Shown piece after piece: positions 3,625 to 60,227 of a stretch of DNA of 64,000 bases. The translations under genes were made by a program, and so were the position numbers. The DNA comes from Nitrospirota bacterium (GTDB lineage Bacteria > Nitrospirota > Thermodesulfovibrionia > Thermodesulfovibrionales > Dissulfurispiraceae). Position 1 is the stretch's first letter, and each line of letters starts with the position of its first letter. The stretch is taken from positions 320,001 through 384,000 of the forward strand of contig CAVPZX010000005.1 in the NCBI GenBank assembly GCA_963710375.1, in the 5' to 3' direction. The notes below the pieces were generated by a model that was not told where the DNA came from, made no database searches, and saw only the letters and a program-made list of their open reading frames with translations.

Positions 3625-3760
3625 AAAACGTGAAACGTGAAAGGTGAATAGTGAATAGTGAACGGCTCAAGGCAAAAAACAAACCAAAAAATCTTTAGCT
3701 TTTAACTATTCACCATTCACGTTTCACGTTTTTAACCATTCACCATTCACCTTTCACTAT
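3625..3760. repeat. 7-bp periodic hairpin (GTGAAWR units) with conserved loop, copy 1
   Basis: gtgaaac gtgaaag gtgaata gtgaata gtgaac..., right arm of ttcac units in two blocks; loop shared with 35443-35544. Confidence 0.92.
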
Positions 3761-3819
3761 TTCCTGTTTTCCTTACTACAAACAACGATGGTATGTGATA
3801 AAATAGAGCACAGGAATGT

Positions 3820-5359: not shown

Positions 5360-6786
5360 TACCATCTGCGATCTTCAGGGAGTATGATATAAGGGGTGTG
5401 GCAGGTAAAGACCTTGCCGGAGATACCGCGGTCCTTATCGGAAAGGCGTTCAGCTCACTTGTAAAATCTTTTATTCCCAAAGCAAAACAGGTGAGCGTAG
5501 GAAGAGATGTAAGGCTGAGTTCTGAAGAGCTTGCTGCCGGGCTTATCAAAGGAATCGTGTCTTCCGGCATCGATGTATATGACATCGGGGTCTGCCCTAC
5601 ACCGGTCCAGTATTTCTCACTCCATCATCTGGATCTGGATGGCGGTATAATGGTTACCGGCAGCCATAATCCGCCGGAATATAACGGCTTCAAGATCAGT
5701 ATAGGGAAAGATGCCATTTATGGCGGAAACATTCAAAAGCTGGAAGAGATAATTAAAAGGCAGGATTGGACAATTTCGGAAGAAGACGGCAGAGTTAAGC
5801 ACTGTAATATAATTGACCCATATAAAGAATATATGCTGAAACAGTTTTCATATCTTAATAATGCACGGTTCAGGAGGGTCAGGGTAGTCATAGATGCCGG
5901 AAACGGCACTGCAGGCGCTATTGTGCCCGAAATCCTGGCCGGAATGGGCTGTGAGGTTGTACCGCTTTATTGTGAACCTGACGGAAGGTTCCCCAACCAT
6001 CACCCTGATCCTACGGTGGTTGAATACATGCAGGACTTGATTATGGAAACGAGGAGGTCAGGAGCGGATATCGGCGTTGGTTATGATGGTGATGCCGACA
6101 GGATTGGAGTAGTTGACAGAGAAGGGACTATTATATGGGGAGATCAGATATTGATCATCCTGAGCAAGGAAGTGTTGAAGGAAAACCCGGGGGCCAAGGT
6201 TATCGGCGATGTAAAGTGCTCGCAGGCGATGTTTGATGAGGTGAAGAAACACGGCGGCATTCCCATTATGTGGAAGACCGGGCACTCTTTAATAAAACAA
6301 AAGATGAAGGAAGAGGGGGCCCTTATCGCAGGAGAATTCAGCGGACATATTTTTATTGCTCATAACTATTTCGGCTACGATGACGCACTCTACACCACCT
6401 TCAGGATTATAGAGATCATGAAGAAAACAGGAAAGGACATAAAAGGGCTTGTTTCTGATGTAGCCAGGATGTCATACACTCCTGAAATCAGGCGCGAATG
6501 CCCGGAAGACATGAAAAAAGAGGTTGTGGGCAATGTGGTGTCCCGCCTCCTTGCCTATTCAAAAGACGGTAATGCTCCTTATAGGATTATAGACGTCAAT
6601 ACGCTTGACGGGATCAGGATTTTATTTGAAAAAGGGTGGGGATTGATACGGACCAGCAACACGCAGCCTGTAATCGTCATGAGAGCCGAGGCAGATGATG
6701 AGGAACATTTAAACCAGTACACAAGTTTTTTGGAAAATGTATTAGAGCAGGCAAAGGTAGAGGTAGAGGTAAAGGTAAAAGGCTAG
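5356..6786 (+). CDS. Phosphomannomutase/phosphoglucomutase (AlgC-like)
   Basis: FREYDIRG, TGSHNP, DGDADR and GEFSGH. Confidence 0.95.
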   Translation: MIPSAIFREYDIRGVAGKDLAGDTAVLIGKAFSSLVKSFIPKAKQVSVGRDVRLSSEELAAGLIKGIVSSGIDVYDIGVCPTPVQYFSLHHLDLDGGIMVTGSHNPPEYNGFKISIGKDAIYGGNIQKLEEIIKRQDWTISEEDGRVKHCNIIDPYKEYMLKQFSYLNNARFRRVRVVIDAGNGTAGAIVPEILAGMGCEVVPLYCEPDGRFPNHHPDPTVVEYMQDLIMETRRSGADIGVGYDGDADRIGVVDREGTIIWGDQILIILSKEVLKENPGAKVIGDVKCSQAMFDEVKKHGGIPIMWKTGHSLIKQKMKEEGALIAGEFSGHIFIAHNYFGYDDALYTTFRIIEIMKKTGKDIKGLVSDVARMSYTPEIRRECPEDMKKEVVGNVVSRLLAYSKDGNAPYRIIDVNTLDGIRILFEKGWGLIRTSNTQPVIVMRAEADDEEHLNQYTSFLENVLEQAKVEVEVKVKG

Positions 6787-6844
6787 CAATGTATAAAATA
6801 ATAATTATGTTATCAACCTTGATCTTAACCTTAGCCTTAACCTG
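6749..6844. repeat. 6-bp periodic hairpin (AGGTAR left arm, AACCTT right arm)
   Basis: aggtag aggtag aggtaa aggtaa encodes the KVEVEVKVKG tail; right arm aaccttgatcttaaccttagccttaacct. Confidence 0.8.
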
Positions 6845-16119: not shown

Positions 16120-17004
16120 ATGAAAGGTATCATTCTGGCAGGCGGAAGCGGCACGAGACTTTACCCGGTGACTTTGTCGGTGTGCAAGCAGCTTCTGCCT
16201 GTTTACGACAAGCCTCTGATTTACTATCCGCTTTCGGTGCTTATGCTTGCAGGCATAAGGGAAATACTGATCATCTCAACACCCCAGGATCTGCCGAGAT
16301 TCAGGGAAATATTTAATACCGGCTCACAATTGGGATTGAGTTTTTCATATAAGGAGCAGTCCCGGCCGAATGGCATTGCCGAGGCTTTTTTGCTGGGAGA
16401 AGAGTTTATCGGCAGCGATGACGTATGCCTTATATTGGGAGATAATATCTTTCATGGCCACGGTTTTACCGATTTGCTGAATAAGGCAGTGAGTGATATA
16501 ACGGCCCGGAGGGGTGCGACCGTATTTGGTTATTATGTCAACGATCCCGAGCGGTACGGAGTAATCGAATGTGACAAAAAAAACAAGGTCCTTTCAATTG
16601 AAGAAAAGCCCAAAATGCCCAAATCTAATTATGCTGTAACAGGGCTCTATTTTTATGATAACAATGTTACTGAGATTTCGAGGAAGATTAAGCCTTCCCG
16701 GCGGGGAGAACTGGAGATAACAGATGTTAACAAGGAGTATCTGAAAGAAGGAAACCTGAGGGTCGAGTTCCTCGGAAGGGGTTACGCTTGGCTTGATACA
16801 GGCACCCACGAAAGCCTTCTTGAAGCAGGCGAATTTATCTCCACCATAGAAAAACGTCAGGGATTGAAGATAGCCTGTATAGAGGAAATTGCTTACCAGT
16901 TGGGCTATATAGATGGCGATCAGCTTTTAAAGCTCGCTAAACCTCTTAAAAAGAACGGATACGGGCAGTATCTTTTAAAAATATTGAAAGAAGAGAGGCT
17001 ATAG
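16120..17004 (+). CDS. rfbA: Glucose-1-phosphate thymidylyltransferase
   Basis: [27 protein letters not shown] and WLDTGT. Confidence 0.97.
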
Positions 17005-17079
17005 GCAATGGGCTATAGGCAATGGGCAAAAACTAAAAAAACTTCGTCCCTATTGCCTATAGCCTATTGCCCATAGCCT
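16996..17079. repeat. 7-bp periodic hairpin (AGGCWAT units), empty
   Basis: aggctat aggcaat gggctat aggcaat gggc ... cctattg cctatag cctattg cccatag cct. Confidence 0.93.
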
Positions 17080-18578: not shown

Positions 18579-19547
18579 ATGAAGAGGCTTTTGGTTACTG
18601 GAGGAGCGGGGTTTATCGGGAGTGAATTTGTAAGGCAGGCAGTAGGGAGGGGATATGCTGTCAGTGTTGTTGATGCCCTCAGCTATGCCGGTGATATGTC
18701 ACGAATAGAAAAAGTTGAAAAGAAGCTCACTTTTTACAAGGCAGACATAGGGAATCTGGACTTTATGCGGTATATTTTTGAGACCGAAAGACCTGATGCC
18801 GTTATCCACTGGGCAGCGGAAAGTCATGTGGACAGGAGCATCCAGGATGCAACGCCATTCCTGGGAACGAATATAAAGGGTACCCATAGTTTGCTCGAGG
18901 CGTCACGGTATTGCAATGTTAAACGTTTCATAAATATATCGACGGATGAGGTGTACGGAGAGCTTGCAGCAGAGGGCCATTTTTATGAAACATCTCCGCT
19001 GAACCCAAACTCGCCTTATTCCGTGAGCAAGGCTTCCGCCGATATGCTGGGAAGGGCATATTTCAGAACATATGGCTTACCGGTAATAACGGTCAGGCCT
19101 TCAAATAATTACGGCCCGTGGCAATATCCTGAAAAACTTATTCCTGTGGTCATACTGAAAGCGATGCGCAATGAGAAAATCCCTGTTTATGGTAAGGGAG
19201 AGAATATAAGGGAATGGCTGTTTGTTTCTGACTGCGCCGGTGCAGTCTTTTCTGTTTTGGAGCATGGTAAGCCAGGTGATATTTATAATGTTGGAAGCGG
19301 TGAGGAAAAGAGGAATATAGATGTAGTCAGGGAAATCCTGCATTTGATGGGGAGACCGGAAAAGATGATTGAATTTGTAGAAGACAGGCCGGGCCATGAC
19401 TACCGCTATTCTCTGGATTCGACAAAGATCTGGAAGCAGCCTGGATTGAAGAAGCTGGTCTCTTTTGAAAAGGGACTCAAGGCAACAGTGAAGTGGTATA
19501 AAGACAACATTTCCTGGGTGGAACAAAAATCAGGCAATAGGCAATAG
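18579..19547 (+). CDS. rfbB: dTDP-glucose 4,6-dehydratase
   Basis: AAESHVDRSI, STDEVYG, YSVSK and DRPGHD.RY. Confidence 0.96.
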   Translation: MKRLLVTGGAGFIGSEFVRQAVGRGYAVSVVDALSYAGDMSRIEKVEKKLTFYKADIGNLDFMRYIFETERPDAVIHWAAESHVDRSIQDATPFLGTNIKGTHSLLEASRYCNVKRFINISTDEVYGELAAEGHFYETSPLNPNSPYSVSKASADMLGRAYFRTYGLPVITVRPSNNYGPWQYPEKLIPVVILKAMRNEKIPVYGKGENIREWLFVSDCAGAVFSVLEHGKPGDIYNVGSGEEKRNIDVVREILHLMGRPEKMIEFVEDRPGHDYRYSLDSTKIWKQPGLKKLVSFEKGLKATVKWYKDNISWVEQKSGNRQ

Positions 19548-19608
19548 GCTCTAGGCTATGGGTAAAAGAAAGAGAATTTTTTGTTTTTTCCTATTTCCTA
19601 TTGCCTAT
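19532..19608. repeat. 7-bp periodic hairpin (AGGCWAT units), empty
   Basis: aggcaat aggcaat aggctct aggctat ggg ... cctattt cctattg cctat. Confidence 0.88.
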
Positions 19609-19618
19609 CTTGTGACAT

Positions 19619-35442: not shown

Positions 35443-35544
35443 GTGAAAGGTGAATGGTGAATAGTGAATAGTGAACGGCTCAAGGCAAAACACAAAAAAA
35501 TCTTTAGCTTTTAACCATTCACTATTCACTATTCACCTTTCACC
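35443..35544. repeat. 7-bp periodic hairpin (GTGAAWR units) with conserved loop, copy 2
   Basis: Same arms and loop (cggctcaaggcaaaa...aaaaatctttagcttttaac) as 3625-3760. Confidence 0.92.
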
Positions 35545-35591
35545 TTCCATAATCTTGACTAATAAGGGCGGCAAAGGGTTAAATATAAGAT

Positions 35592-40167: not shown

Positions 40168-41419
40168 TTCTTTATATAGCGCTTTCTATGCTGCGGCACT
40201 GGCCTTCCTGCTCCCACTGGAATATTTAAAGCGATCATCTGAATTTCGGAAGCGATGGCTGAGGGAACGCTTCGGCCTTTATAAGGGGAATAGGTTTAAC
40301 GGCCGGCCTATCTGGATCCACGCAGTTTCAGTTGGAGAAGTCATTGCAACCGTCCCGCTTATCGAAAAGATTAAACAGAGACATCCTTCACTTGAAATTC
40401 TCATTTCAACGGTTACCGACACCGGGCAGCAGGTTGCCCTGGAGCGGGCAGGGGCTTATGCTCGAATTATTTATGTGCCTTTTGACCTGCCTTTCGCTAT
40501 TAAGAATGCCCTGCATCATATCCGGCCGTCTGCCTTTATCATAATGGAGACAGAGTTGTGGCCCAATGTTATCAGGATTATGAAAGATAGCGATGTTCCT
40601 GTGATACTGATGAACGGCAGATTGTCCGAACGTTCATATAATGGTTATAAAAAACTCGATTTCTTTATCGGAAAAGTTCTCCTGAACATCAGTCTTCTCT
40701 GCGTGCAGGATGATATCTACGCCGGGCGATTCGGGAATCTTGGCGCGTTACCTGAGCGGATAAAGATCATCGGCAGTTTCAAGTTTGATACACGGCCCTC
40801 TTCAGATATTCCGGAATGGACTGAAGCACTCCGCGGTCCTGTTATAATTGCAGGAAGCACGCACGAGACCGAAGAGGAACTGGTGCTCGATGCCTATATA
40901 CGGTTAAAAGCTTACGAGCCCGGCCTTAATCTTATTATTGCTCCAAGACATCCCGGGCGTTTCAGGACTGTGGAGGAACTGGTAAAGAAAAAGGGCCTGC
41001 AATATGTGAAGCGATCGGAGTTCGCAAATAGTCAGGACTCTCAGGCTTCCGGGCTCGTCGTCATCCTCGACGTTATCGGGGAGTTGTCTGCCCTGTATGG
41101 CGCTGCCGATATTGCGGTCATGGGGGGGAGTTTTATCGAACACGGGGGTCAGAATCCTCTGGAGCCGGCGTTCTGGGGAAAAGCTATTGTATGCGGCCCC
41201 CATATGGAAAACTTTCCTTTTATGGAGGAGTTTTATTCGTGTAGAGGAGCGGTCAGGGCAGAAGGCCCCCGACTTTATAATGTCCTGAAAGAGCTGCTCG
41301 ATTCACCCGAACAAATGCGGAGTATGGGAAGCATTGCAAAGAAACTCTACGAGAAGAACTCAGGCGCTACAGAAAGGGCAATGGAACTAATAGAAAAATA
41401 TATAGGCAATGGGCAATAG
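40160..41419 (+). CDS. waaA: Kdo transferase
   Basis: W.HAVSVGE, ETELWPN, APRHP and GGQNPLEP. Confidence 0.95.
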   Translation: MFNSLYSAFYAAALAFLLPLEYLKRSSEFRKRWLRERFGLYKGNRFNGRPIWIHAVSVGEVIATVPLIEKIKQRHPSLEILISTVTDTGQQVALERAGAYARIIYVPFDLPFAIKNALHHIRPSAFIIMETELWPNVIRIMKDSDVPVILMNGRLSERSYNGYKKLDFFIGKVLLNISLLCVQDDIYAGRFGNLGALPERIKIIGSFKFDTRPSSDIPEWTEALRGPVIIAGSTHETEEELVLDAYIRLKAYEPGLNLIIAPRHPGRFRTVEELVKKKGLQYVKRSEFANSQDSQASGLVVILDVIGELSALYGAADIAVMGGSFIEHGGQNPLEPAFWGKAIVCGPHMENFPFMEEFYSCRGAVRAEGPRLYNVLKELLDSPEQMRSMGSIAKKLYEKNSGATERAMELIEKYIGNGQ

Positions 41420-41503
41420 GCAATAGGTAAAGGCTATGAATACAGAAAATAAAAAACAATTTTTTATCTTTTGCCTATCGCCTATTGCCTATCGCCTATC
41501 GCC
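41402..41503. repeat. 7-bp periodic hairpin (AGGCWAT units), empty
   Basis: aggcaat gggcaat aggcaat aggt ... gcctatc gcctatt gcctatc gcctatc gcc. Confidence 0.92.
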
Positions 41504-44636: not shown

Positions 44637-44641
44637 ATATC

Positions 44642-44670: not shown

Positions 44671-44675
44671 TTTTT

Positions 44676-44847: not shown

Positions 44848-44852
44848 AATTT

Positions 44853-44881
44853 TTGCCTTCTTAACAATTTTATGCTATAGT
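44853..44881 (+). promoter_or_regulatory. Putative sigma70 promoter of the response regulator
   Basis: TTGCCT-17 bp-TATAGT with TGn extension, 9 nt before ATG 44891. Confidence 0.55.
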
Positions 44882-44890
44882 TTTCTCTGT

Positions 44891-45610
44891 ATGAGAAAGC
44901 TCAATGTGCTTGTTGTCGATGATGTCGCATCCATGCGCAAATTCCTGAAGTACGGGCTGGATAAGAGCTTTCCCGAAATCTTTGTGGACGAGGCTGCCAA
45001 CGGGAAAGAGGCCCAGGCAAAATTAGAAAAAGAGGAGTATGACCTTGTGCTCTGCGACTGGGAAATGCCGTACGTAAACGGCGAAGAACTCCTGACCTGG
45101 GTGCGGAACCACCCGACACTCTCCAAGATGCCCTTTATAATGGTGACGTCAAGAAGTGATAAGCCGAGCGTATTAAAGGCTATGCATGGGGGAGTGGACT
45201 CGTACATGATAAAGCCCTTTACTGCTGACGGCCTTGCACAGAAGGTCATGATGCTTGTCGATAAGGCCGACAGGAGAGAATCGGAGCGCTTTGAAGCGCA
45301 CGGTGATATAAAATTGCATTTCAGGGACCAGGTATCCAGAGGAAATATTGTTGATCTCAGCATGGGAGGACTCTTCTGTTTGATTAGCAGGAAGAATCCA
45401 CTGCCGTCGATTTTTGAAGAGGTGCGGGTAGATGTAACACTTGAGGAAACGCAGAAGAAGGCGGAAGGGCTTCAGGGGTTCATTATCAGGATACAGGCTG
45501 CAGAAGCGTTTATCGATGCCGAAAACGTTAAGATCGCCGTGAAATTCCTCGAACAATCCAGCGAATCAACTAATCAAATTCAGCAGCTCATTGAATCATT
45601 GAAGACCTGA
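44891..45610 (+). CDS. Response regulator (CheY-like receiver + PilZ-like domain)
   Basis: VVDD, DWEMP and KPF; RRESER and DLSMGG PilZ motifs. Confidence 0.88.
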   Translation: MRKLNVLVVDDVASMRKFLKYGLDKSFPEIFVDEAANGKEAQAKLEKEEYDLVLCDWEMPYVNGEELLTWVRNHPTLSKMPFIMVTSRSDKPSVLKAMHGGVDSYMIKPFTADGLAQKVMMLVDKADRRESERFEAHGDIKLHFRDQVSRGNIVDLSMGGLFCLISRKNPLPSIFEEVRVDVTLEETQKKAEGLQGFIIRIQAAEAFIDAENVKIAVKFLEQSSESTNQIQQLIESLKT

Positions 45611-45613
45611 GGC

Positions 45614-47140
45614 TCAGAAGCTTTTATTTATTGTATCCCGCACGATCTCTGTTGTCCCCCTAAAATCAATTTTTCCGCTTCCCATTTTCGGGAGTTCTTC
45701 TATCACTACAAACTGGCTCGGGAGGGCGATATTGGGAAGATGCTTCGACATATCCTTTAGCATCTTTTTTTCATCCAGTTGCCGGGTGACAGCCGCCACT
45801 ATCTTTGCCCCTTTTATTGTATCCGGGATCTCGACCACGCAACAGGAAACATCTTGAGGAAGGAATCGTTCAAGTGTGTTTTCCACCCTTACCAATGAAA
45901 CCATTTCTCCCCCGATTTTAACAAATCTCTTTAATCTTCCTGAGTGCCACAGGTACCCATCTTCATCAAAAAAGCCCATATCGCCTGTATCATACCATCC
46001 GTGCCGGATGCGCATGGATGTCTCTTCAAGGTCATCAAAGTAACCCTTCATTACAATATCTCCCTTGACCAGGACCCGCCCAACCTCACCAAACCGGCAA
46101 TCAGCTCCGGTCTCATAATTCTCTATCCGGACCTGCACGCCCGGCAATATCTTGCCGACGCTTCCCGGCCTGCTGTTGCCAGGAGTGTTTGCGGAGATTA
46201 CCGGCGATGTCTCAGTGGTCCCATAACCTTCATAGAGAGTGATTCCATGTTTTTTTTGAAATTCCTCCTGCAGTGTTTCAGGACATTTGTCAGCGCCGCA
46301 GATGACATAACGCAAGCTCCCGAAATCTCCTGATTCGGATTTCCGGAGATAGCCCCATAAAAAACTGGGGGTCCCGACCATTATTGTCGGTTTATGATCT
46401 CTAACAATGTTGCAGATTATCTTGTAGTCGAGGGGGTTTGCATATGAAATGATTGTCATACCAAAGTAGAATGGCACCCAAAGATTGACTGTAAGGCCAA
46501 AGACATGGAAAAAAGGAAGGTTCGCAAGCATGCGGTCCTTATCATTAAGATCGATGATTTTAGAGACGCTTTCAATGTTGGATGCTATGTTACGATGGGT
46601 CAGTTGCACTGCTTTGGGATCTTTTTCGCTGCCGCTCGTGAACAATATAACAAGATTGTCGTCCTCATCACCCGCATGAATATATCTTCTTATACATAAC
46701 TCAGCCGGCAGTGATGCCTTTATCGTCGCTTTCAGTTTGTCGGAGACTGAAACCCTTTCCATGATATCTTCTATAAAGACCATCCCATCAACAGGTTCAC
46801 ATTTAATCTTTTCCAGAAGGGCTTTGGATGTAATAACAGTCTTAACATTGCATTTCCTCTGCGCATTACGAACATTATCTGAAGCGCCAGTAGAATAATT
46901 GATAATTACGGGGGTCTTTCCGCTCATCAATGTGCCAAGGATTGACAGGGCAGCTCCTGCAGACGTTGGAAGCATTATGCCCAGGAATCCTTCTTCATAC
47001 TTCCTGAATTTATCAGCAAGGATCAGAGAGGCGATTAGTGCCTTGGAATAGGTAACTCTTTTGTCGGTAGTGCAATCAATGAAGGCAAGTTTTTTGCCAT
47101 ACTTTTTAGCTGTCTGAACAAAATGATGATGCAAAAGCAT
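45614..47140 (-). CDS. AMP-binding acyl-ACP synthetase (Aas C-terminal-like)
   Basis: FTSGSEKDPK, EGYGTTE, TGD, GR.KRF.KIGGE and GSGK.D. Confidence 0.88.
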   Translation of the reverse strand: MLLHHHFVQTAKKYGKKLAFIDCTTDKRVTYSKALIASLILADKFRKYEEGFLGIMLPTSAGAALSILGTLMSGKTPVIINYSTGASDNVRNAQRKCNVKTVITSKALLEKIKCEPVDGMVFIEDIMERVSVSDKLKATIKASLPAELCIRRYIHAGDEDDNLVILFTSGSEKDPKAVQLTHRNIASNIESVSKIIDLNDKDRMLANLPFFHVFGLTVNLWVPFYFGMTIISYANPLDYKIICNIVRDHKPTIMVGTPSFLWGYLRKSESGDFGSLRYVICGADKCPETLQEEFQKKHGITLYEGYGTTETSPVISANTPGNSRPGSVGKILPGVQVRIENYETGADCRFGEVGRVLVKGDIVMKGYFDDLEETSMRIRHGWYDTGDMGFFDEDGYLWHSGRLKRFVKIGGEMVSLVRVENTLERFLPQDVSCCVVEIPDTIKGAKIVAAVTRQLDEKKMLKDMSKHLPNIALPSQFVVIEELPKMGSGKIDFRGTTEIVRDTINKSF

Positions 47141-47253
47141 AATTAGTATCTGTCCATAAATCAAGATTTAAGTAAAGGGATTCCATTCTTTTTAACATGT
47201 TCTGGATTGTCCGGTCAAGCCTCGTCCGGTCAATCCGCCTAGGCGGAGGGCAA

Positions 47254-48669
47254 TCACAGTTTTTCCCATCCGCCTCCCAGTGCTTTGATCAGCCGCACGC
47301 TGGCGCCGAAGCGCTGTCCTTCTATCCGGGCCTTCTGAAGTTCGTATTGAAGCTTATTCCGTTCGGCATCCAGCAGTTCAAAGCGACTGATTGCGCCGGC
47401 TTCGTAGCGGGCTTTTGCCAGTATATTTACCCGTTCCGCTGAGGCTAGGGCTTCGTCCTGGGCAGCGGCCTGTTCATTGGTGAAGACAATTTGCGCGAGA
47501 GAATCTTCAACTTCTTTAAAGGCTGTGAGCACGGTTTGTCGATAGTCGGCCAGACCTTCATCGTAAGATGCCTTTGCCTGGTCAACGTCAGCAGCAGTCC
47601 GCCCTCCGGTAAACAACGGGAGGCTGACGCCAGGACCAAATGACCAGATGCGGTTGCCATACAAAAATAGATTGTCCACACTGTCGCTGAGATACCCGGC
47701 CTGGCCGGTCAGGTGGAGAACAGGGAAGTAAGCTGCGCGGGCAACACCGATTTGGGCGTTTTTTGCCGCGAGGTTTCTTTCCGCTCTCGCAATGTCGGGC
47801 CGGCGTTCGAGGAGCGATGAGGGCAGACCTGCCGGGATAACAGGAGGCTCAGCGGTCAGGGGGCATTTATGGATCTCAAATGAACTGGCGGGTCTGCCGC
47901 AGAGTAGTGCGATGGCATTTTGGGTTTCGGCGCGCTGACGTGCAGTATCGGCCAACCCGGCTTTGGCACTAGCCAGTTCAGTTTTTGCCTGGGCGAGATC
48001 GCTTTCCGGAACGGTGCCGGTTGTAAAACGGTCGCTCAAGATGCGGACTGTCTCATCGCGCAGTTCCACTGTCCGACGTAATACGGCAATTTCAGCATCC
48101 AGAGACCTGACCCTGAAATAGTCTGCTGCAACATCGGCAGTGAGCGCGAGGAGCACATTATGATAATCCGCGACGCTGGCCTGGGCCTGGGCCTTGGCGG
48201 ATTCCAAAGAGCGTCGGACCCGGCCCCAGAGGTCCACTTCATAACTCAAATCCAGTGGAACGCTGAAAGAATTCAGCTGCATGGAGACCTCTTTGAACTG
48301 GGAGGGGAGCGGGATTGGAATCGGCTGGTGGGCCGAAGTCCGCTGCCTGCTGAACGACGGATCGAGGGACAGTTCCGGGAATAACCGGCCTCTGCTGAGC
48401 CTTGCGGCAGCAAGGTATTCATCTATGCGGGCCACGGCGGCACGGAGATTTTGATTGTTTGAGACAGCGCCGTCTTCCAGTTCATCAAGTGCCGGGTCTT
48501 TGAAAAGTTTCCACCACTCGCCTTTCGGGATCGTATCCTTAGGCTCTGCAATTTTCCAGCGCCAGTCAGTAGGAGTGATGTTTGTCACATCGGGCCTCTT
48601 GTAGTCAGGGCCTACTGCGCATGAACAGAGCACCGCAAGCACCGCACATTGCCAAAGCAGCTTCTTCAT
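47254..48669 (-). CDS. Efflux outer-membrane lipoprotein (NodT/OprM family)
   Basis: CAVGPDY.RP, E.DLWG, LL.RRPDI and ALGGGW; start placed at ATG 48669. Confidence 0.93.
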   Translation of the reverse strand: MKKLLWQCAVLAVLCSCAVGPDYKRPDVTNITPTDWRWKIAEPKDTIPKGEWWKLFKDPALDELEDGAVSNNQNLRAAVARIDEYLAAARLSRGRLFPELSLDPSFSRQRTSAHQPIPIPLPSQFKEVSMQLNSFSVPLDLSYEVDLWGRVRRSLESAKAQAQASVADYHNVLLALTADVAADYFRVRSLDAEIAVLRRTVELRDETVRILSDRFTTGTVPESDLAQAKTELASAKAGLADTARQRAETQNAIALLCGRPASSFEIHKCPLTAEPPVIPAGLPSSLLERRPDIARAERNLAAKNAQIGVARAAYFPVLHLTGQAGYLSDSVDNLFLYGNRIWSFGPGVSLPLFTGGRTAADVDQAKASYDEGLADYRQTVLTAFKEVEDSLAQIVFTNEQAAAQDEALASAERVNILAKARYEAGAISRFELLDAERNKLQYELQKARIEGQRFGASVRLIKALGGGWEKL

Positions 48670-48671
48670 AA

Positions 48672-49811
48672 TTAATCCAGTGTCCTCCGGTAACGCTTTA
48701 CTCCGATTGTCACGGCAAAAAAAGCAAAAAGCGCGATTTGCCAAAGTTGCAGCATGACGTCTGCAAAACCGTTGCCTTTTAACACAATCCCGCGGACGAT
48801 CCTCAGGTAATGGGTGAGCGGGAACCATTCCCCGAGCGCCTGTGCCCAGTGAGGCATGCCGCGGAAAGGGAACATGAACCCTGAAAGCAGTACCGAGGGC
48901 AGGAAGAAGAAATATGACATTTGAAGGGCCTGGCGCTGATTCTTGGCTATTGTGGAAACGCTGATGCCCAGCGCCAGATTTGCGGTGATAAACACAAATG
49001 AGGCCGCGAGCAGCAGGAATATGTTTCCAACCATAGGGACATGAAAAAGAAAACGGGCTGCTGCAAGGATGAGGAACAGCTGAATGTAACCTACTAGTAT
49101 ATAAGGAACGATCTTGCCCACCAGCACCTCGACCGGGCGTGTAGGCATGGAAAGGAGATTTTCCATGGTGCCGCTCTCGAGTTCCCGGGTAATTGCAAGG
49201 GCTGTTATAACGATCGTGGTCATAGTAAGGATGACGCCCATAAGGCCCGGCACTATGTTGAATTGCGTATTGACTTCGGGGTTATACAGGGCGTGTGTGC
49301 GCAGATCGATGGGGCCGTTAACGCCGGACAGATAAGAGAGCGGGCCCTTCAGATCGTTTTGCAACACGCTGTCGAACAGAAAGCGCAAAGAGCCGAGAGC
49401 ATTACTGGTAGCTGCAGGATCGGTTGCATCCGCTTCGATAAGAACGGGTGGCCTGTCGCCGCGCAGGAGGTCCCGCGTGAAATTCTGCGGGATATTAATT
49501 ACGAACTGTACCTCACCGCGTTCAAGCGCTTTGCGTCCTTCGGCTTCGGTCTTGATCTCCCTGACGAAATCGAAATAACTGCTGTTCCGAAGTGAGTAAA
49601 GAACAGTCCTGCCCATAGGGCCGTTATCGTTAACCAGCATCGCGGCAGGAAGGTGCTTGGGATCAGAATTGATTGCGTAGCCGAAAAGGGTGATCATAAT
49701 GAGAGGCATGATTATCATGAGCGCGAAGGTGACCCGGTCCCTGCGCATCTGGATAAATTCCTTGACCACCATAGCCCAGAACCGCGCCGGCGAAATCCTG
49801 ATTTTTATCAT
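48672..49811 (-). CDS. ABC-2 type permease (YbhR/S-like)
   Basis: KEF.Q..RD, RE.E.GT.E and LSGF.FP. Confidence 0.92.
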   Translation of the reverse strand: MIKIRISPARFWAMVVKEFIQMRRDRVTFALMIIMPLIMITLFGYAINSDPKHLPAAMLVNDNGPMGRTVLYSLRNSSYFDFVREIKTEAEGRKALERGEVQFVINIPQNFTRDLLRGDRPPVLIEADATDPAATSNALGSLRFLFDSVLQNDLKGPLSYLSGVNGPIDLRTHALYNPEVNTQFNIVPGLMGVILTMTTIVITALAITRELESGTMENLLSMPTRPVEVLVGKIVPYILVGYIQLFLILAAARFLFHVPMVGNIFLLLAASFVFITANLALGISVSTIAKNQRQALQMSYFFFLPSVLLSGFMFPFRGMPHWAQALGEWFPLTHYLRIVRGIVLKGNGFADVMLQLWQIALFAFFAVTIGVKRYRRTLD

Positions 49812-50734
49812 GACGACAGTCCATCCTTTGGCTGATTCATAAGATGGATGAAAACATCTTCCAGGCTCGAATCGACACGGCGCCAGTTATACCGTCCGGT
49901 GCGATACGGGACGATAGCTTTATCAAGAGCGGCAGGATCATCGCCGCTGACGCGGAGCGTATTGCCGAAAGGCACTGCCTGCTCCACGCCGGGTGCGTCC
50001 CGGAGCTGTCCGGCCAATTCGAGCAAGTCCGGTCCGCTGACCGACCACGTTGTGAGGTGGGCCCGATCGATGACTCCTCTGACTGTGCCGCGGGTGAGCA
50101 GAATGCTGTTGGAGATGAAGGCAATCCGATGGCAGCGTTCGGCTTCATCCATATAATGCGTGGCAACAAGGAATGTAAGCCCCTGTCCGGCAAGCTGATG
50201 GATCTCCTCCCAGAATTCCCTGCGCGCTTGCGGGTCAACGCCGGCAGTCGGTTCGTCCAGCAGCAGGAGCTTCGGCTGGTGAAGCATGCACGCCGCCAAT
50301 GCGAGGCGCTGTTTCCAGCCGCCCGAAAGCTCGCCTGCAAGCTGGTTCCTGCGCTCCGTCAGTCCTAGTTTTTCGATGCTCTCCCGGACAACATCCCTGC
50401 GGTTGCTCAGGGAATACATGCGCGCTACGAAATCAAGGTTCTCGGAAACACTCAAGTCCTCATAAAAACTGAACCGCTGGGTCATATACCCTACCCGCCG
50501 CTTTATATCTTCGCTCTCTGTGATCACGTTATGGCCAAGGCATGTACCGCTGCCGGAATCAGCCCTTAGAAGACCGCACAGCATGCGAATAAATGTGGTT
50601 TTGCCGCTGCCGTTCGGACCGAGAAATCCACATATTTCGCCGGTAGCGACCTGGAGGTCAACACTACTTACAGCGGTATGCCCGCCAAACCGCTTGGTCA
50701 TTCCATGCACATCTATGGCGAGTTCGGCGGCCAT
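49808..50734 (-). CDS. ABC transporter ATP-binding protein
   Basis: GPNGSGKT, LSGG and LDEPT. Confidence 0.95.
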   Translation of the reverse strand: MAAELAIDVHGMTKRFGGHTAVSSVDLQVATGEICGFLGPNGSGKTTFIRMLCGLLRADSGSGTCLGHNVITESEDIKRRVGYMTQRFSFYEDLSVSENLDFVARMYSLSNRRDVVRESIEKLGLTERRNQLAGELSGGWKQRLALAACMLHQPKLLLLDEPTAGVDPQARREFWEEIHQLAGQGLTFLVATHYMDEAERCHRIAFISNSILLTRGTVRGVIDRAHLTTWSVSGPDLLELAGQLRDAPGVEQAVPFGNTLRVSGDDPAALDKAIVPYRTGRYNWRRVDSSLEDVFIHLMNQPKDGLSS

Positions 50735-50737
50735 GGA

Positions 50738-51721
50738 TCAAGGACCTAACTGTACATCCACGGGCTGGCCTGGATGCAGCCTCGCCGCAGTTTCGGCATC
50801 GAATTCAACTTCAATCATGAAGACCAGTTTGCCGCGGTTTTCCCTGTTATAGATTACAGGCGGCGTGTATTCGGCCTTTGGCGAAATGAAACTTACCTTT
50901 CCCATAAATGGAGCAGGCACGCTGTCCACTATGACCCTTACTGTTTCGCCGTAATGAATTGAGCTGACGCGGGCTTCCGGCACAAACGCGCGAACTTTGA
51001 TGTTGCGGGGCGGCAGCAGCACAACGACGGGATGGCCTGCTGCGACCCATTCACCCTCGCGATAGAGCGTGTCATAAATCAATCCGGCTTCGGGCGCGGC
51101 CTGGCGTTTTTGAGAAAGGTCCCATCCCGCCCTGGCCAGCGTTGCTGTCAGCGCCCTCACATTGGCTTCTGCAGCTGCAATCTGGTCACTCCTGGAGCCC
51201 AGATGAGCTGTTGCCAGGTCGGCTTCCAATTGGGCCACCCGTTGGCGGTCCTGGTCCCTCGCTGAACGCGCTCGGTCAACGTCCTGGACAGAAGACGCCG
51301 ATGTCCGCAGGAGTTTTTCCTGTCGCGCGAGTTCTTTTTCCGAAAGTACCAGGGCTGCCTGGGCCTGACGCAACTGGGCTTCGGCGGACTCTATTTCTGT
51401 GGGCCGTCTGCCTTTCCTGGCGTCTTCCAAACTCGAGTGGGCCTGGACCAGCCTCCGTTCTGCCTCGTCCCTGGCAGATTTTTCAGGCTCATTATCCAAT
51501 GTGAAGAGCAGTTTGTCGGTCTTCACCTGATCTCCCCGCTGCACGTCCAAAGACTTTAACTCTCCGGCAAACGGTGAAGCGATATAAACGAATTCTCCCT
51601 CCGCATAACCCTGCACACTATTGTCAGCAGGGCGGCTGCAGCCGGCCAGAATGCACAACGCCGCCAGAATGCACAAGTTATTTATTCTCGAGCCCTTATG
51701 CGGAGCCCCTGCGCAGATCAT
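50738..51721 (-). CDS. HlyD-family periplasmic adaptor (YbhG-like)
   Basis: Lipobox LAGC, coiled-coil hairpin and AEYTP motif. Confidence 0.92.
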   Translation of the reverse strand: MICAGAPHKGSRINNLCILAALCILAGCSRPADNSVQGYAEGEFVYIASPFAGELKSLDVQRGDQVKTDKLLFTLDNEPEKSARDEAERRLVQAHSSLEDARKGRRPTEIESAEAQLRQAQAALVLSEKELARQEKLLRTSASSVQDVDRARSARDQDRQRVAQLEADLATAHLGSRSDQIAAAEANVRALTATLARAGWDLSQKRQAAPEAGLIYDTLYREGEWVAAGHPVVVLLPPRNIKVRAFVPEARVSSIHYGETVRVIVDSVPAPFMGKVSFISPKAEYTPPVIYNRENRGKLVFMIEVEFDAETAARLHPGQPVDVQLGP

Positions 51722-52347
51722 ATTTTCAACCTTCCTTTCTCGGTGATCAAACCCTCGAGAATCACCGTAATGATAGAGGCATAGGCCGCCTTTATCGTGA
51801 TACCCAGCTCTTCTAACCTCGAAGGGTTTATAATGGCCTGCACCGAGCTTAGGATAATGTCCGTCACCACTTTGGCCGGAATGTCCTTGCGTATGATCCC
51901 GGCCCTGCGTCCCGCGCCAAGTAGCCTCCCGAAATAGCGCTGAATAATATCGCGGCGCCGACCCTCTATCAGTTTGAAGATTTCTGGCGCCTCACGGCGA
52001 AGGTCACGGATAAAGGGGGGATGAATCTCCCCTATATGGCCTTGTATGCAGGTAAGCACATTTTGGAGGACTCGGGGAAAATCGGCCAACGGTCCGGAAC
52101 TTATTTGCTGCAGCTCAGACTCGACGTCCTGAAATTTATCGAGGATTACGACCTCTACAAGAGCCATCTTGCTCGGGAAGTGAGCGTAAAGGGTTTTTTT
52201 GCTCATCCCTAGTTCTTTTGCAATGTCATCCATTGTGACACCGCGAAAGCCGTTAGCGAAAAAATGCTGCCGGGCAGCGGCAACGATCCTCAGCCATTGG
52301 GAATTCACTGCAGGCGATTCTTTCAAATCCGCTTTGGTGCGTTGCAT
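51718..52347 (-). CDS. TetR/AcrR family regulator
   Basis: T.DDIA.ELG.SK.TLY.HF.SK; start at 52347 or 52359. Confidence 0.92.
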   Translation of the reverse strand: MQRTKADLKESPAVNSQWLRIVAAARQHFFANGFRGVTMDDIAKELGMSKKTLYAHFPSKMALVEVVILDKFQDVESELQQISSGPLADFPRVLQNVLTCIQGHIGEIHPPFIRDLRREAPEIFKLIEGRRRDIIQRYFGRLLGAGRRAGIIRKDIPAKVVTDIILSSVQAIINPSRLEELGITIKAAYASIITVILEGLITEKGRLKI

Positions 52348-52401
52348 GGATAATAACACTCCTTCAGGGCAAGGACCTGTAACCGTGCTTAAATACTCTG
52401 T

Positions 52402-52440
52402 AAACTATCGAAGTATATAAAGTTTCCTTGACCGTGTCAA
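52402..52440 (-). promoter_or_regulatory. Sigma70 promoter with probable TetR operator
   Basis: TTGACA-17 bp-TATACT on the minus strand; AAACT-N14-AGTTT inverted repeat over the -10. Confidence 0.7.
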
Positions 52441-52448
52441 GGCCGGGT

Positions 52449-52534
52449 AGGTAAAGGTAGAGGTAGAGGTAGAGCAAAAGCAATAACCAGGGCAGGCTTA
52501 ATCGAGTATTTTCTATACCTCTACCTATACCTCT
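52449..52534. repeat. 6-bp periodic hairpin (AGGTAR units)
   Basis: aggtaa aggtag aggtag aggtag ... ctatacctctacctatacctct. Confidence 0.88.
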
Positions 52535-52657
52535 GTTTGGCATCGCGATACGGTTGCTAAAACAACCCCAAAAAGGGTAGATTATTACAATTCAAATACA
52601 TTAGACAATAAGCACCGGCATGGCAGTCTCAGTAACTACGTGTTTTAAGAGTGTAAA

Positions 52658-52732
52658 GGGCGATTAGCTCAGTGGTAGAGCGCTTCCTTCACACGGAAGA
52701 GGTCGAGGGTTCGATACCCCCATCGCCTACCA
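52658..52732 (+). tRNA. tRNA-Val(CAC)
   Basis: Cloverleaf; anticodon arm cttcc tt CAC ac ggaag; ACCA end. Confidence 0.95.
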
Positions 52733-52741
52733 TTAACGGCA

Positions 52742-52828
52742 AAGGTTAAGGTTGAGGTTGAGACAGATAATGTATAAGGGATTTAACTAAAGTCTTTTTT
52801 TCTTAACCTTAACCTTAACCTTGACCTG
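52742..52828. repeat. 6-bp periodic hairpin (AGGTTR units)
   Basis: aaggttaaggttgaggttgag ... cttaaccttaaccttaaccttgacct. Confidence 0.9.
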
Positions 52829-52846
52829 TTTTCTCCGGGGTGAAGT

Positions 52847-53419
52847 GTGAGCAAAAAAGAAAAGTGTGATCATCTAATCTCTCATTACAGTAAGCTTATC
52901 GAATCAAACCCGAATGATTACAGGGCATACAACAATCGCGGCAACGCATACCAGAAGTGTGGGGAATATGATCTCGCTCTTGCCGATTACGATGGGGCCC
53001 TCGAGCTGAACCCGTCATTCGACCTTTGCTACATCAACAGGGGCAACACGTACCAAAAGACAGGCGATTACGAACGTGCAATCGCAGACTATGACAGAGC
53101 GATCGCGCTGAATCCGGAAAACAGCATGGCCTATAACAACAGGGGCTTTGTGTACATGTTAATGCAAAAAAACAAGGAAGCGGAGAGGGACATTAATAAA
53201 TCAATAGAAATCAATCCGAACAATATATATGCCCTGAACAGTATGGCTGAATTTTGTGCTGCCCAACAAAATGCACAGGAGGCGTGCAAATGGCTGAAGA
53301 AGGCCATTGACAAGGGATATAACAACTGGGGATACATCAAATCCTCCCAAACCTACGACAACATACGCTCCGCCGCCTGTTTCAAAGAAATACTGAAGGC
53401 AATAGGCAATAGGCTATAG
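52847..53419 (+). CDS. TPR repeat protein
   Basis: Repeated AYNNRG...A..DY..A..LNP. Confidence 0.92.
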   Translation: MSKKEKCDHLISHYSKLIESNPNDYRAYNNRGNAYQKCGEYDLALADYDGALELNPSFDLCYINRGNTYQKTGDYERAIADYDRAIALNPENSMAYNNRGFVYMLMQKNKEAERDINKSIEINPNNIYALNSMAEFCAAQQNAQEACKWLKKAIDKGYNNWGYIKSSQTYDNIRSAACFKEILKAIGNRL

Positions 53420-53818
53420 GCGATGGGAAAAAATGGTTTCAAGGATTTGATTGTTTGGCAAAAAGCTAAAGCTCTTGCAGTTTATATTTACAAAATATCT
53501 GAAGAAGGATCTATAGGTCGAGATTTTGGTTTGAAAGATCAGATTCGGCGAAGCGTTGTAAGTATAGCGAGCAATTTGGCAGAAGGAGATGAACGCGATA
53601 CAGATAAAGAATCTGTGCGTTTTTTTTATATTGCAAAAGGATCACTTGCCGAACTGCAAACTCAGATCCAAATTGCTAATGAGGTAGGTTATTTGGAAAA
53701 GAACATTTATGAACAATGTGAGAAATGTTGTAAAGAATTGGGGAAAATGATAGGCAGTCTCATCAAAGCGAGAACGAAATCCAATAACCTATAGCCCATC
53801 GCCTATAGCCTATTGCCT
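53397..53818. repeat. AGGCWAT periodic inverted repeat enclosing a whole gene
   Basis: 53404-53427 aggcaataggctataggcgatggg is the exact reverse complement of 53795-53818. Confidence 0.93.
53423..53794 (+). CDS. Four-helix-bundle protein (23S rRNA intervening-sequence protein family, PF05635/TIGR02436-like)
   Basis: FKDL.VWQKA, GL.DQIRRS..SI.SN.AEG, F..IA.GS..E..TQ and GYL. Confidence 0.93.
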   Translation: MGKNGFKDLIVWQKAKALAVYIYKISEEGSIGRDFGLKDQIRRSVVSIASNLAEGDERDTDKESVRFFYIAKGSLAELQTQIQIANEVGYLEKNIYEQCEKCCKELGKMIGSLIKARTKSNNL

Positions 53819-53844
53819 GTCTTTTTGTGTTTTTTTTCACATTT

Positions 53845-53930
53845 ATGTAGTATTATTGCTACATTCTCTTCCAGGTACTGTTTTATTATTACTGCATATC
53901 CAAGTAGTTATGCTCGGCATATTTTTTGCT
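53845..53930 (+). promoter_or_regulatory. Putative sigma54 promoter with upstream palindrome
   Basis: cGGCA-tattt-tTGCT (GG-N10-GC) at 53915-53930; ATGTAG-N8-CTACAT at 53845-53864. Confidence 0.55.
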
Positions 53931-54191
53931 CTTTATCTTCTTGGGATTATTGCGTTCTTTGAAACCTCGCTGGTCGTAATTTTCTTGACTATTTGCTATG
54001 AAGCGGTTAAACTATGCCAGTTTTCATAAAACCTTTTACTTTTTTATAAGGCTTGTTTCCGTTGGCGGAAACAAAATCCACGGAAGAAAGGGGGGGTGAT
54101 ATAAGAAGATAAAAAACGGATAATGTAGAAGTCAGAGGATTTAAAATCCGCCTTTGGCGGACAAACTGAACTAACCTCAGGAGGTTAGGAA

Positions 54192-55739
54192 GTGAAAAAG
54201 TACTTATCAATTCTTTTAGCTATGTTGTGTGTCTTCGGCTTTGCAGCCAGCGCTTTTGCTATGCATGCCGACATCCCTTCAGAAACAACGGCGGCCATAG
54301 CCCAAGGCAGTACCCAGATAACAATAAGCGGTCAAATCAGGGCTAGATACAATTGGCAGCACACGGGTTTTAACAGTAACGATAACCAAGTCGAGTCAGC
54401 TTATATGGATGAGCGCATAAGACTCGGCGTCCTGGCCGTATTGAGTCCGAACACAACCGGTTTTATTGAGCTTTCGAGCGAGGCCGATCCAGCTTCATCC
54501 GGCACAGCTTCGTATGATAATATGTATGGCGGTTCGGGAGGCACAGGCGTTGGAGGATCCGGCAAGTCTGATTCTTACGGCCTGGCTGGTGGAGTGGGCA
54601 ATGAGTTGAAGGGAACCGTTGCCATTCGTAACATGTGGATACTGTACAAAGGCACAGGCCTGCTCGGCGTGGAGTCTGGAATTAAGGTCGGTCATATGCC
54701 GATGAGCCTTGGCAGCGGTCTGTTCTTTGACCACACCTATTTTGGCGACGACGGTATTATTGCATACGTGTTCCCTGTCAAAGAGCTTGAGGTTGCCGGA
54801 GTGGTAAACATTGCAGAAGTGGATGGTATAAACAATCCTCCATTGGGTTCTGCATTAAACACATCCTTAAGCAATAAGGCCACCGGATATGTCTTATTGG
54901 CAAATTATAAACCAAGCAAAACCACGTCTATCAGTGGCGACGTAACTTTCTTTAATGTACAGAATGCCGGCGAGACGACCACCACTACTAACGATTTCGG
55001 CAGTATTCACCTTTGGAACTTTGCTCTAAGAGGCAACACCGAGGTTTCAGGCGTGAGACTTAAGATCGATGGTGAACTCCAGGCAGGAGACTTTTTAACT
55101 TCGTTTACTCCAAGCACGACCCACACCACCGTGCCTGCCACTACTTTGCACGGCTATGCAGTGCAAGGAGGCATAGGCTATACAGTTGATCCTGTAATGC
55201 TCGACCTTGAGGTTGGGTATGGCAGCGGTGACAGCGGCAAGAATTCGACCAAAGCTAACTCCTTCTATACTGCGGAGGGTCCGGAGTCGACCTTTGGCGA
55301 TCCTTACAGGTACAGCCATGGAGTACAAGGCCCTTATGTGTATAATTACCGTACCGTCAATGCCGCAGGCATCCAGTACGGCGGTCTTTCAAACACCATG
55401 TATGTTAGAGTCGGCGGCAATGCTGATCTAACAAAGGGCCTGAATTTTGATGCCGCATTTTTCTACCTTTCGGCTGCTAATGCAATCACATCATCAAATG
55501 TTGGTTTATACGGCTTTTCAGCCTCTAACGTAGCGGCCGCGGGATATAAGGCCAGCCATGACATAGGTGAAGAAATTGACGCAAAACTCACCTACAAACT
55601 CGACAAAGGACTTCAGACCTGGGTCGAAGGTGGCTACCTTTGGGCAGGAGACTTCTGGAAAGCAGTTTCAACAGTTACACCCGGACAGAGTCCGAGCAAT
55701 TGCTACACAGCAAGGACCGGTATACAGTTAGACTTCTAA
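54192..55739 (+). CDS. Outer-membrane beta-barrel porin-like protein
   Basis: Signal peptide, alternating beta-strand pattern, G.E.D....Y and C-terminal Phe (GIQLDF). Confidence 0.82.
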   Translation: MKKYLSILLAMLCVFGFAASAFAMHADIPSETTAAIAQGSTQITISGQIRARYNWQHTGFNSNDNQVESAYMDERIRLGVLAVLSPNTTGFIELSSEADPASSGTASYDNMYGGSGGTGVGGSGKSDSYGLAGGVGNELKGTVAIRNMWILYKGTGLLGVESGIKVGHMPMSLGSGLFFDHTYFGDDGIIAYVFPVKELEVAGVVNIAEVDGINNPPLGSALNTSLSNKATGYVLLANYKPSKTTSISGDVTFFNVQNAGETTTTTNDFGSIHLWNFALRGNTEVSGVRLKIDGELQAGDFLTSFTPSTTHTTVPATTLHGYAVQGGIGYTVDPVMLDLEVGYGSGDSGKNSTKANSFYTAEGPESTFGDPYRYSHGVQGPYVYNYRTVNAAGIQYGGLSNTMYVRVGGNADLTKGLNFDAAFFYLSAANAITSSNVGLYGFSASNVAAAGYKASHDIGEEIDAKLTYKLDKGLQTWVEGGYLWAGDFWKAVSTVTPGQSPSNCYTARTGIQLDF

Positions 55740-58740: not shown

Positions 58741-58753
58741 AACTCCTCCTTAA

Positions 58754-58933
58754 GGGCTCGCGAATAAATACCTTGTACATTGATGCATCTCGGATTTAGG
58801 CCATCTTTGCCCGATCCTCAGTCACAAAATCCTCAACGTAGCTATGCTACGCCTGCGGTTTTGCTCAGTCGGATCAGCCAAATCTGACCCAAATCCGAGC
58901 GCCTGAATGCACAAGGTATTTATTCGCGAGCCC
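58754..58933. mobile_element. ~180 bp MITE-like long hairpin, copy 2 (inverted)
   Basis: Perfect 22-bp TIR gggctcgcgaataaataccttg; homologous to 27923-28103. Confidence 0.88.
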
Positions 58934-59139: not shown

Positions 59140-59472
59140 TTATATCTTTTCCGCTACCCTATGGGTCTCAGGTATCGCCACTTTACTGGCCTTCACAGCG
59201 TCTGCGATGAAACCCGCTGCCCATCCCAGCACACCAAGGCCGACAACAAAGACGACAGCGGTCATCAGTACTCCCGCTATCATGGAAAAGGCGACAATCA
59301 GCCGCGGCATTATAGCCCCTGCCACTATAGGCCCAAACATGCCCTCCGCAATCTTCAATCCGACATACCCTCCGACAAATGAGCCTGGAAGCACTCCTAC
59401 CAGTACCAACAGAACCAGTCCCATACCTGTCCCAATATACAATCCTTTCTTTGCCATATCATTCGTTGCCAT
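59140..59472 (-). CDS. Small Gly-rich membrane protein, paralog 1
   Basis: KKGLY.G.G.GLVL..L.G.LPGSF.GG; GGAGGGGAG RBS. Confidence 0.85.
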   Translation of the reverse strand: MATNDMAKKGLYIGTGMGLVLLVLVGVLPGSFVGGYVGLKIAEGMFGPIVAGAIMPRLIVAFSMIAGVLMTAVVFVVGLGVLGWAAGFIADAVKASKVAIPETHRVAEKI

Positions 59473-59888: not shown

Positions 59889-60227
59889 TTATTTAACTAC
59901 GGATGTAACTTCTCTTTCAATTCTCTTGCCATGCCTTATCGTATCCACAGCATGCCCGACCAACCAGCCCAACAAAGAGAAGCCCACCACAAAGACCACC
60001 CCTGCTAGCATCACCCCAAGCACCATGGATACACTCACAATGATCCTGGGCAGCACAGATGCAGTCAACGGCAGTCCGAAGATGCGGCCCGCGATGTTAA
60101 GTCCGACCACTCCTCCGATAAAGGAGCCTGGAAGCAACCCTGTAAGTGCGAATAAAACGAGACCAGCCCCTATTCCAGTATATAATCCCTTTTTTGCCAT
60201 CTCTCCTAAACCATTACCGTTTGCCAT
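59889..60227 (-). CDS. Small Gly-rich membrane protein, paralog 2
   Basis: Same motif as 59140-59472; AAGGAGGT RBS. Confidence 0.85.
   Translation of the reverse strand: MANGNGLGEMAKKGLYTGIGAGLVLFALTGLLPGSFIGGVVGLNIAGRIFGLPLTASVLPRIIVSVSMVLGVMLAGVVFVVGFSLLGWLVGHAVDTIRHGKRIEREVTSVVK

Follow-up and report, generated by a model that had tools for sequence, protein, structure and literature searches.

The locus described here is very probably a real and clear copy of a widespread family of elements, the parts of which have been published separately: a gene for a four-helix-bundle protein, inverted arms built from short periodic units, and hairpins of the same design that lack the gene. The gene is inherited jointly with its arms, and the pair occurs at many unrelated sites. 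The gene-less hairpins, which we call empty, can form by deletion of the loop and are then copied themselves, and sites that were already occupied, including sites in 23S rRNA, have been re-used by other families of units. The analysis starts from a stretch of 64,000 nucleotides from a Nitrospirota genome of 3.19 Mb that is 98.8% complete (G000). This stretch (G000:C5:320001-384000) is called the window, and positions without a contig name refer to it.

Table 1. The gene-bearing (focal) cassette with its upstream neighbour, and empty hairpins of the window.
Feature	Position	Strand	Remark
Upstream host TPR gene	52847..53419	+	final codons encoded by left arm
Left arm, four RGGYNAT heptamer units	53397..53424	+	overlaps TPR stop codon
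Four-helix-bundle gene (PF05635 / TIGR02436), 123 aa	53423..53794	+	profile search
Right arm, five heptamer units	53784..53818	-	includes TAG of the gene
Empty hairpin, focal unit	16996..17079		rfbA/rfbC junction
Empty hairpin, focal unit, worn right arm	19532..19609		rfbB/wbaP junction
Empty hairpin, focal unit	41404..41497		waaA/lpxK junction
Empty hexamer hairpin	6749..6843		loop start resembles start of hexamer-clade gene
Empty hexamer hairpin	52737..52828		between tRNA-Val and TPR gene
Empty GTGAANN hairpin	3625..3761		in 11-copy loop-sharing group
Empty GTGAANN hairpin	35444..35549		loop is that of 3625; none in G005, G002, G007

An earlier note on this DNA had described a gene bracketed by heptamer arms with a 24-bp inverted match, and this description holds: the match runs without mismatch between 53404-53427 and 53795-53818. 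Specifically, the left arm overlaps the stop codon of the TPR gene (53417-53419) and gives the first two letters of the next ATG, and both this start codon (53423) and the TAG at 53792-53794 overlap repeat units, as had been claimed. Membership of the protein in its family is well above cut-off, both for PF05635, whose whole model is matched (E 3.5e-36, 124.1 bits against a cut-off of 33.8), and for TIGR02436 (120.1 bits, cut-off 24). The PF05635 gene is the sole ORF of the cassette, in agreement with the reported absence of a transposase in cis. That the gene is AT-richer than its TPR neighbour also stands, but the GC contents are 36% and 45%, with 47% for the window, and not 32% and 52%. The cassette sits between the TPR gene and a porin-like gene, outside any rRNA gene, and its gene has the top flank-pairing score among 843 small ORFs of the genome. 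Promoter and terminator scans yielded matches at chance level only.

Six full-length family genes are present in the genome, each flanked by a different unit, and periodic hairpins are far more numerous: a census counts 232 of them, as against none in a single shuffled copy of the genome. All except two of the hairpins (230/232) can be assigned to twelve labelled families, led by a hexamer (68), GTGAANN (52), the focal unit (23) and an octamer (20). The empty hairpins of the focal unit with short A/T loops that had been noticed before are present, with starts at 16996, 19532 and 41404. For five array families, to which about 55 hairpins belong, this genome has no cognate gene, and the only loop occupants found in it are four-helix-bundle genes.

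The hairpins share an architecture that goes beyond inverted repetition. When order was recounted without the preference used in de-duplication, a purine-rich array with its partner downstream was found 232 times, and a pyrimidine-rich array with a partner downstream only was found twice. In seven of the 11 families counted, arms most often have four units, at periods of 6, 7 and 8 (76/136, 23/46 and 24/40 arms, respectively), with per-family unit patterns that were composed post hoc, after the data had been inspected. A looser count of 150 arms of filled cassettes gives four units in 46 and five in 44. Unit number is constant across hairpins while stem length is not, and the arm profiles show that the invariant letters of the units are core adenines, the spacer positions being degenerate.

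Several further observations were made in these sequences. Several filled cassettes are joined directly to an empty hairpin or to an arm block repeated in tandem (G000:C5:269540-270450, 280938-281550 and 318050-318700). An in-frame heptamer hairpin lies inside a trpE-like gene (2076-3579), likewise in the relatives G005 and G003, and a tandem family of membrane-protein genes in G005 (C12, about 180000-250000, L202-L205) carries in-frame hairpin arms at several places. The apparent frameshift that splits the trpE-like gene of the window is an assembly error, because all four sequencing runs lack one letter at 2960; a letter at 13125 is likewise absent from all four. Two more palindromic elements of the window exist in several copies, with long outer arms that are specific to the site and with high contig depth (10644-10879 and 44674-44849), a piece of the second being found again at 21616-21676. 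A stretch of about 180 nt is duplicated in inverted orientation 30 kb away (27923-28104 and 58753-58933), the copies being 88-95% alike, with a related piece at 51662-51699, and a 128-nt repeat, 71% alike (59333-59460 and 60076-60203), lies in two small ORFs that have no Pfam match.

The earlier note had proposed that periodic inverted flanks are enriched around PF05635 genes, and they are. Across the genome and its relatives, flank pairing exceeds the 95th percentile of the control (843 ORFs) for 83 of 89 full-length genes, and for 77 of the 89 it also exceeds a control with swapped flanks. In a tree of the family, unit and period are common to the members of a protein clade; 13 of 102 matches, which are partial, were left out of this tree, and its 104 columns leave many forks without resolution. 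The link between unit and clade is most evident for the focal clade, for which 80 loci with 53-79% identity were taken from GTDB and 75 kept, five being without flanks. Among these, 72 of 75 exceed the flank-pairing control, and at least two RGGYNRN units are present on both arms at 70 of 75, compared with 0 of 84 genes of other clades (40/75 and 0/84 with the strict unit pattern), the relaxed pattern having been composed after inspection of the data. The loci come from Nitrospirota, delta-proteobacteria, Verrucomicrobiota, Omnitrophota and others, such that the link spans several phyla, gene GC contents of 31-66% and 38 neighbour contexts.

This association has bounds. Similarity across arms increases only above 55% protein identity, and a Mantel test across all pairs shows no signal (rho 0.054, with a maximum of 0.091 among permutations). 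Moreover, physical linkage alone can be enough to produce a link between unit and clade. The ratio dN/dS is 0.06-0.16 in eight of 13 pairs, the remaining five being saturated, and judged by these values the family is under purifying selection. A family gene above cut-off is present in 44 of 61 relatives and is broken in many. Hexamer arrays occur in 7/7 genomes with the cognate gene versus 12/54 without it, and at a threshold of at least ten matches in 6/7 versus 3/54, where one of the seven genes counted has an internal stop and kin genomes are dependent samples; three genomes without the hexamer gene hold 12-45 hexamer matches. Matches to the focal unit abound even where no focal-clade gene was found, the best identity being 33-44% (406 matches in G003, 192 in G005, 133 in G008 and 119 in G002, compared with 64 here). 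Such abundance counts against a strict driver model.

The suggestion that the system moves small genes requires revision. We regard the gene as part of the element rather than as general cargo, because the loops of this genome hold only four-helix-bundle genes and the unit tracks the protein clade. A pair of housekeeping genes whose flanks scored high, considered as candidates for general cargo, proved to lie between neighbouring empty hairpins, in pyrimidine-first order. In the relative G003, a PF13366 gene resembling PD-(D/E)XK nucleases lies in inverted CGCAAAG-type arms of its own (L219:17965-18312), and therefore a second type of occupant exists. Its cassette is fused to an empty hairpin with the same CGCAAAG-type unit, and a profile search for PF13366 gave no match in the present genome. 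Phage records contain no match to the four-helix-bundle family, and plasmid records contain 31, with Nostoc as the largest group.

Comparison of orthologous junctions demonstrates how variable the occupancy of a site can be. Among the eight congeners listed, the gene at the focal junction is intact in G009 (59% identical), whereas in G007 it ends after about 30 codons, inside arms of the same unit. The contig of G001 stops after the left arm, and G002, G005 and G006 have remnants of that arm. G004 carries an empty hairpin with another unit, and G003 carries another unit with a different insert. The filled/empty polymorphism that the earlier note had anticipated is real in the sense that truncated, empty, filled and bare alleles are present at orthologous junctions, with no clean empty allele of the same unit at the focal junction among the relatives listed. 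Three contig joints that skip the focal gene (40000-54400) were considered as orthologous empties and are read as paralogous ones, because their short side has only 24-26 letters.

Similar exchanges are seen elsewhere. The hairpin at 6749-6843, empty here, has a whole hexamer-clade gene at the orthologous site of G002, and the empty version retains the first letters of such a gene. The junction between tRNA-Val and the TPR gene is empty here, contains a focal-clade gene in G006 and holds different units in other relatives. Filled alleles had also been expected at rfbA/rfbC, rfbB/wbaP and waaA/lpxK, and there they appeared in 0/5, 0/5 and 0/8 relatives of the genus, respectively, and 57 further loci around waaA and rfbC homologues gave no hit. 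The rfbA/rfbC junction is without a hairpin in G005 and has other units in G003 and G002; in G005 and G003 the rfbB/wbaP junction carries a related unit, in G002 and G006 it carries other units, and in G007 it has none; and the waaA/lpxK junction is without a hairpin in four of eight relatives and has another unit in the other four. One contig of depth 2 links rfbA to rfbC through 25 other letters (side 30), which is too weak to count.

In the regions compared, hairpins of G003 are found at 31 of 43 junctions that are occupied here versus 24 of 173 that are not, and 17 of the 31 have another period. For G005, the corresponding values are 16/32 and 15/135, with another period in five of the 16. 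The re-use of sites may be a matter of junctions that tolerate inserts, with no targeting involved.

Even rRNA genes are used in this manner. Both 23S rRNA genes of the genome carry an empty hexamer hairpin (G000:C2:686595 and C2:1070226), which lies at a short, variable helix of the Rfam model (positions 277-294). The 23S rRNAs of G005 and G007 have the same hexamer unit and loop. On one contig of G003, by comparison, two readable 23S copies hold an octamer and another heptamer, respectively, and the heptamer hairpin lies in the same outer helix as the hexamer hairpin of G000; a third G003 copy yielded no insert that could be read. By analogy with Coxiella, cleavage at these rRNA hairpins is likely.

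The origin of some empty hairpins by loop deletion is evident from truncated genes within arms, with intermediates at the focal site of G007, at C5:278303 and at 6789 when compared with G002. Only one loop has a clear match to the start of a gene, and of 186 loops no more than 33 are shared with a paralogue; the 33 form nine groups, and all 35 links between them stay inside one arm family. The largest group has 11 copies on six contigs, and among the copies inspected the outer flanks are unlike. Copied empties at co-directional junctions lie along transcription in six cases and against it in six. In 33 pairs of alleles with and without a hairpin, target letters were lost in 31 and overlap was seen in two (14 and 5 nt); the loss is at most 37 letters in 15 of the 31, and where it is large the alignment failed or another insert is present. 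No regular target duplication is found in these 33 pairs, whose alleles are about 10% diverged, and because the compared species differ to this extent a short duplication may have decayed.

We propose that the focal locus would be one gene-bearing copy of a set of insertable units whose gene-less versions are dispersed in the genome. A five-part ring, as in the nearest solved homologue of the focal protein (the five-chain entry 2GSC, E 1.2e-14 by sequence search), would recognise, in an array of four units, the strand that is rich in purines, and such recognition would explain both the fixed unit count and the link between unit and clade. That the protein counts units is suggested by the constant unit number at varying period, the degenerate spacers and the clade-specific words. 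Unit-counting binding to purine-rich repeats is a property of TRAP and Hfq, and four units and five subunits offer no simple match. Because the left arm covers the start of the gene, the protein may also repress its own translation. Host repair or recombination would then copy units at the DNA level so that they take the place of a spacer or of a hairpin already present, a scheme we favor because copying is free of orientation, target letters are lost and occupied sites are re-used. In the weakest step of the proposal, bound protein would protect or present the ends of the arms, and the copy would replace the target with a loss of 10-40 bases. Some empties also travel within ordinary MITEs. 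On the sequence patterns described above, the protein probably binds its cognate array. For the full mechanism, in which the ring binds its own arrays and host copy-and-replace of DNA spreads the units, we would put the chances at little better than even, at most.

An alternative at the RNA level, in which the arms are an RNase III stem that excises the insert from transcripts and the excised RNA is mobile, is unlikely, and the excision proposed in the earlier note is not supported at mRNA sites. The idea draws on a Coxiella intervening sequence with a PF05635-type gene and heptamer arms, which the passages of PMC4990558 describe as cut by RNase III, and on the hairpins in the variable helix of both 23S genes. 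It would also suit the predicted stem of the focal region (fold z = -7.75), the co-orientation of filled cassettes with their neighbors (upstream 77 versus 2, downstream 76 versus 4; 116 loci) and the median gap of 4 nt between the upstream stop codon and the first arm. However, in most families an arm pairs about as well with a swapped sibling as with its own partner, the excess being found chiefly for GTGAANN (20.0 versus 16.9), and the sense strand shows no enrichment of G.U pairs (134 versus 110 A.C, p = 0.14). By crude gene calls, hairpins are borne by divergent junctions (27/421, 6.4%) about as often as by co-directional ones (146/2050, 7.1%), with 39/425 (9.2%) for convergent junctions. 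Constancy of unit number rather than stem length, and copying of empties in both orientations, are likewise not what an RNA stem would demand. Finally, RNase III as portrayed in the published passages cleaves without re-ligation, and would therefore split an mRNA instead of restoring it.

The resemblance of the protein to Avd raises the prospect of a retro-element that acts in trans, in which the ring binds the RNA of the hairpin and enlists a reverse transcriptase that is not its own, and cDNA replaces a target marked by a hairpin. In the passages of bioRxiv 10.1101/2023.10.23.563531 and PMC10053308, each of the five protomers of Avd touches an RNA stem-loop; according to PMC3240598, targets of diversity-generating retroelements (DGRs) depend on a hairpin and undergo replacement without duplication; and re-use of sites without target duplication would be compatible with DGR-like homing. 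We nevertheless consider this very improbable. The focal protein matches both Avd models weakly and below cut-off (PF22296, E 1.5e-7, 32.3 versus 40 bits; NF033474, E 4.1e-9, 36.7 bits versus 80), and this nearly complete genome has no match to the reverse transcriptase family PF00078. Furthermore, the core adenines of the units are invariant, unlike the outcome of adenine mutagenesis, and the orientation of copies is independent of transcription.

There is an equally slim chance that the arrays are sites of a global regulator, as for the paired sites of Geobacter, and that the gene encodes a regulator with its own operators. A fixed unit count with degenerate spacer positions does resemble a binding array, the protein is maintained by purifying selection, and a regulator hypothesis for the empties is already in print in the passages of PMC2700814. 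Set against this are arrays located inside 23S rRNA and in frame inside trpE, and the finding that the unit family at a given junction differs between congeners. The restriction of the gene to part of the relatives, where it is frequently broken, and the persistence of arrays in genomes without it fit a host regulator no better.

Passive repeats, made by slippage and template switching and spread only by hitchhiking on MITEs or through gene transfer, with the gene as a linked passenger of unrelated role, are similarly improbable: arrays are indeed abundant without a cognate gene, and in G056 (L247-L257) an empty hairpin rides within a repeated unit of about 185 nt that ends in inverted repeats and is flanked by direct repeats of 9 bp (by eye, of 11 copies, perfect in three, 8/9 in two, 7/9 in one, with five lacking an end), as another does in a different repeated unit in G027 (L238-L246), these carried hairpins being young, identical empties, but the passive model leaves without explanation the four-unit mode, the purine-first order, the clade-specific unit kept at saturated synonymous divergence, and the 11-copy group with its unlike outer flanks.

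Returning to recognition by the ring and copying by the host, we raise as a doubtful but possible extension that these loci constitute a new class of selfish element. Its sole gene would encode a non-catalytic ring, clade-specific words of 6-9 bases would be arranged in four-unit arrays, and host repair would paste these over hairpins, such that rival families overwrite each other, also in rRNA genes. Intervening sequences of rRNA and the repeats of Geobacter and Xanthomonas would then be filled and empty forms of the same thing. This reading joins three items, namely a large protein family without an assigned function, the origin of rRNA intervening sequences that bear an ORF, and pairs of four-unit repeats in spacers. 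For each protein, its own flanks also spell out a predicted ligand, which makes function testable. If the ring reads one short word per subunit, then the family would be a natural set of binders with differing nucleic-acid specificities.

MITEs and REP elements are short non-coding units with inverted ends and many intergenic copies that derive by deletion from a coding form, and REP elements in particular carry a tetranucleotide foot of the GTAG type and are linked to a RAYT transposase. The empties resemble MITEs and insertion sequences in their terminal inverted repeats and dispersed copies. They differ from MITE and REP elements in that the coding form has no transposase, no regular target duplication is seen in the allele pairs compared, the arms are periodic and there are about eleven unit families; no GTAG-type foot is present in the arm profiles.

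The Avd protein of DGRs is, as predicted for the focal protein, a five-part four-helix ring, and the two are homologous. Avd holds the bases of a stem-loop, flipped, in crevices between protomers, according to the passages of bioRxiv 10.1101/2023.10.23.563531 and PMC10053308. The focal protein differs in scoring below the Avd cut-offs, and its genome has no PF00078 match, so none adjoins the gene.

The closest published counterpart of the filled form is the Coxiella intervening sequence in helix 45 of 23S rRNA, where an S23p ORF lies in the loop and is judged to be decaying, and three plus one heptamers precede its ATG (passages of PMC4990558). The focal cassette is similar in that a gene of this family occupies the loop between its terminal inverted repeats and four heptamers come before the start. 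It has the long stem of such intervening sequences (24 bp) and lies outside rRNA. Compared with the Coxiella case as portrayed there, the rRNA copies here are gene-less, and the family is under purifying selection.

The Coxiella intervening sequence and the repeats of Geobacter and Xanthomonas have been published separately, and in the literature as represented by these passages we found no report that joins gene, arms and empties, including the passages of PMC2996986, PMC4679880, PMC5524665 and bioRxiv 2024.02.27.582315, although the neighbor table of PMC2700814 may contain the link. The passages of PMC2700814 and PMC4692102 include no filled form, clade link or swapping of unit families; 'S23' is absent from both main texts, 'helix' from that of PMC2700814 and 'bundle' from that of PMC4692102. 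These passages interpret the repeats as regulator sites or quadruplexes. With about four units in inverted pairs, however, the repeats of both organisms are like the empties described here. The paired sites of Geobacter metallireducens have about four units of 7-8 nt, are inverted at variable distance and lie near stop codons, and one of them is occupied by a different sequence in a sister species (PMC2700814, in the passages cited). Among the GGGAATC repeats of Xanthomonas, a four-unit array labelled only 'conserved' in the table of PMC4692102 lies over the start of XCC0516, and XCC0516 is the solved homologue 2GSC.
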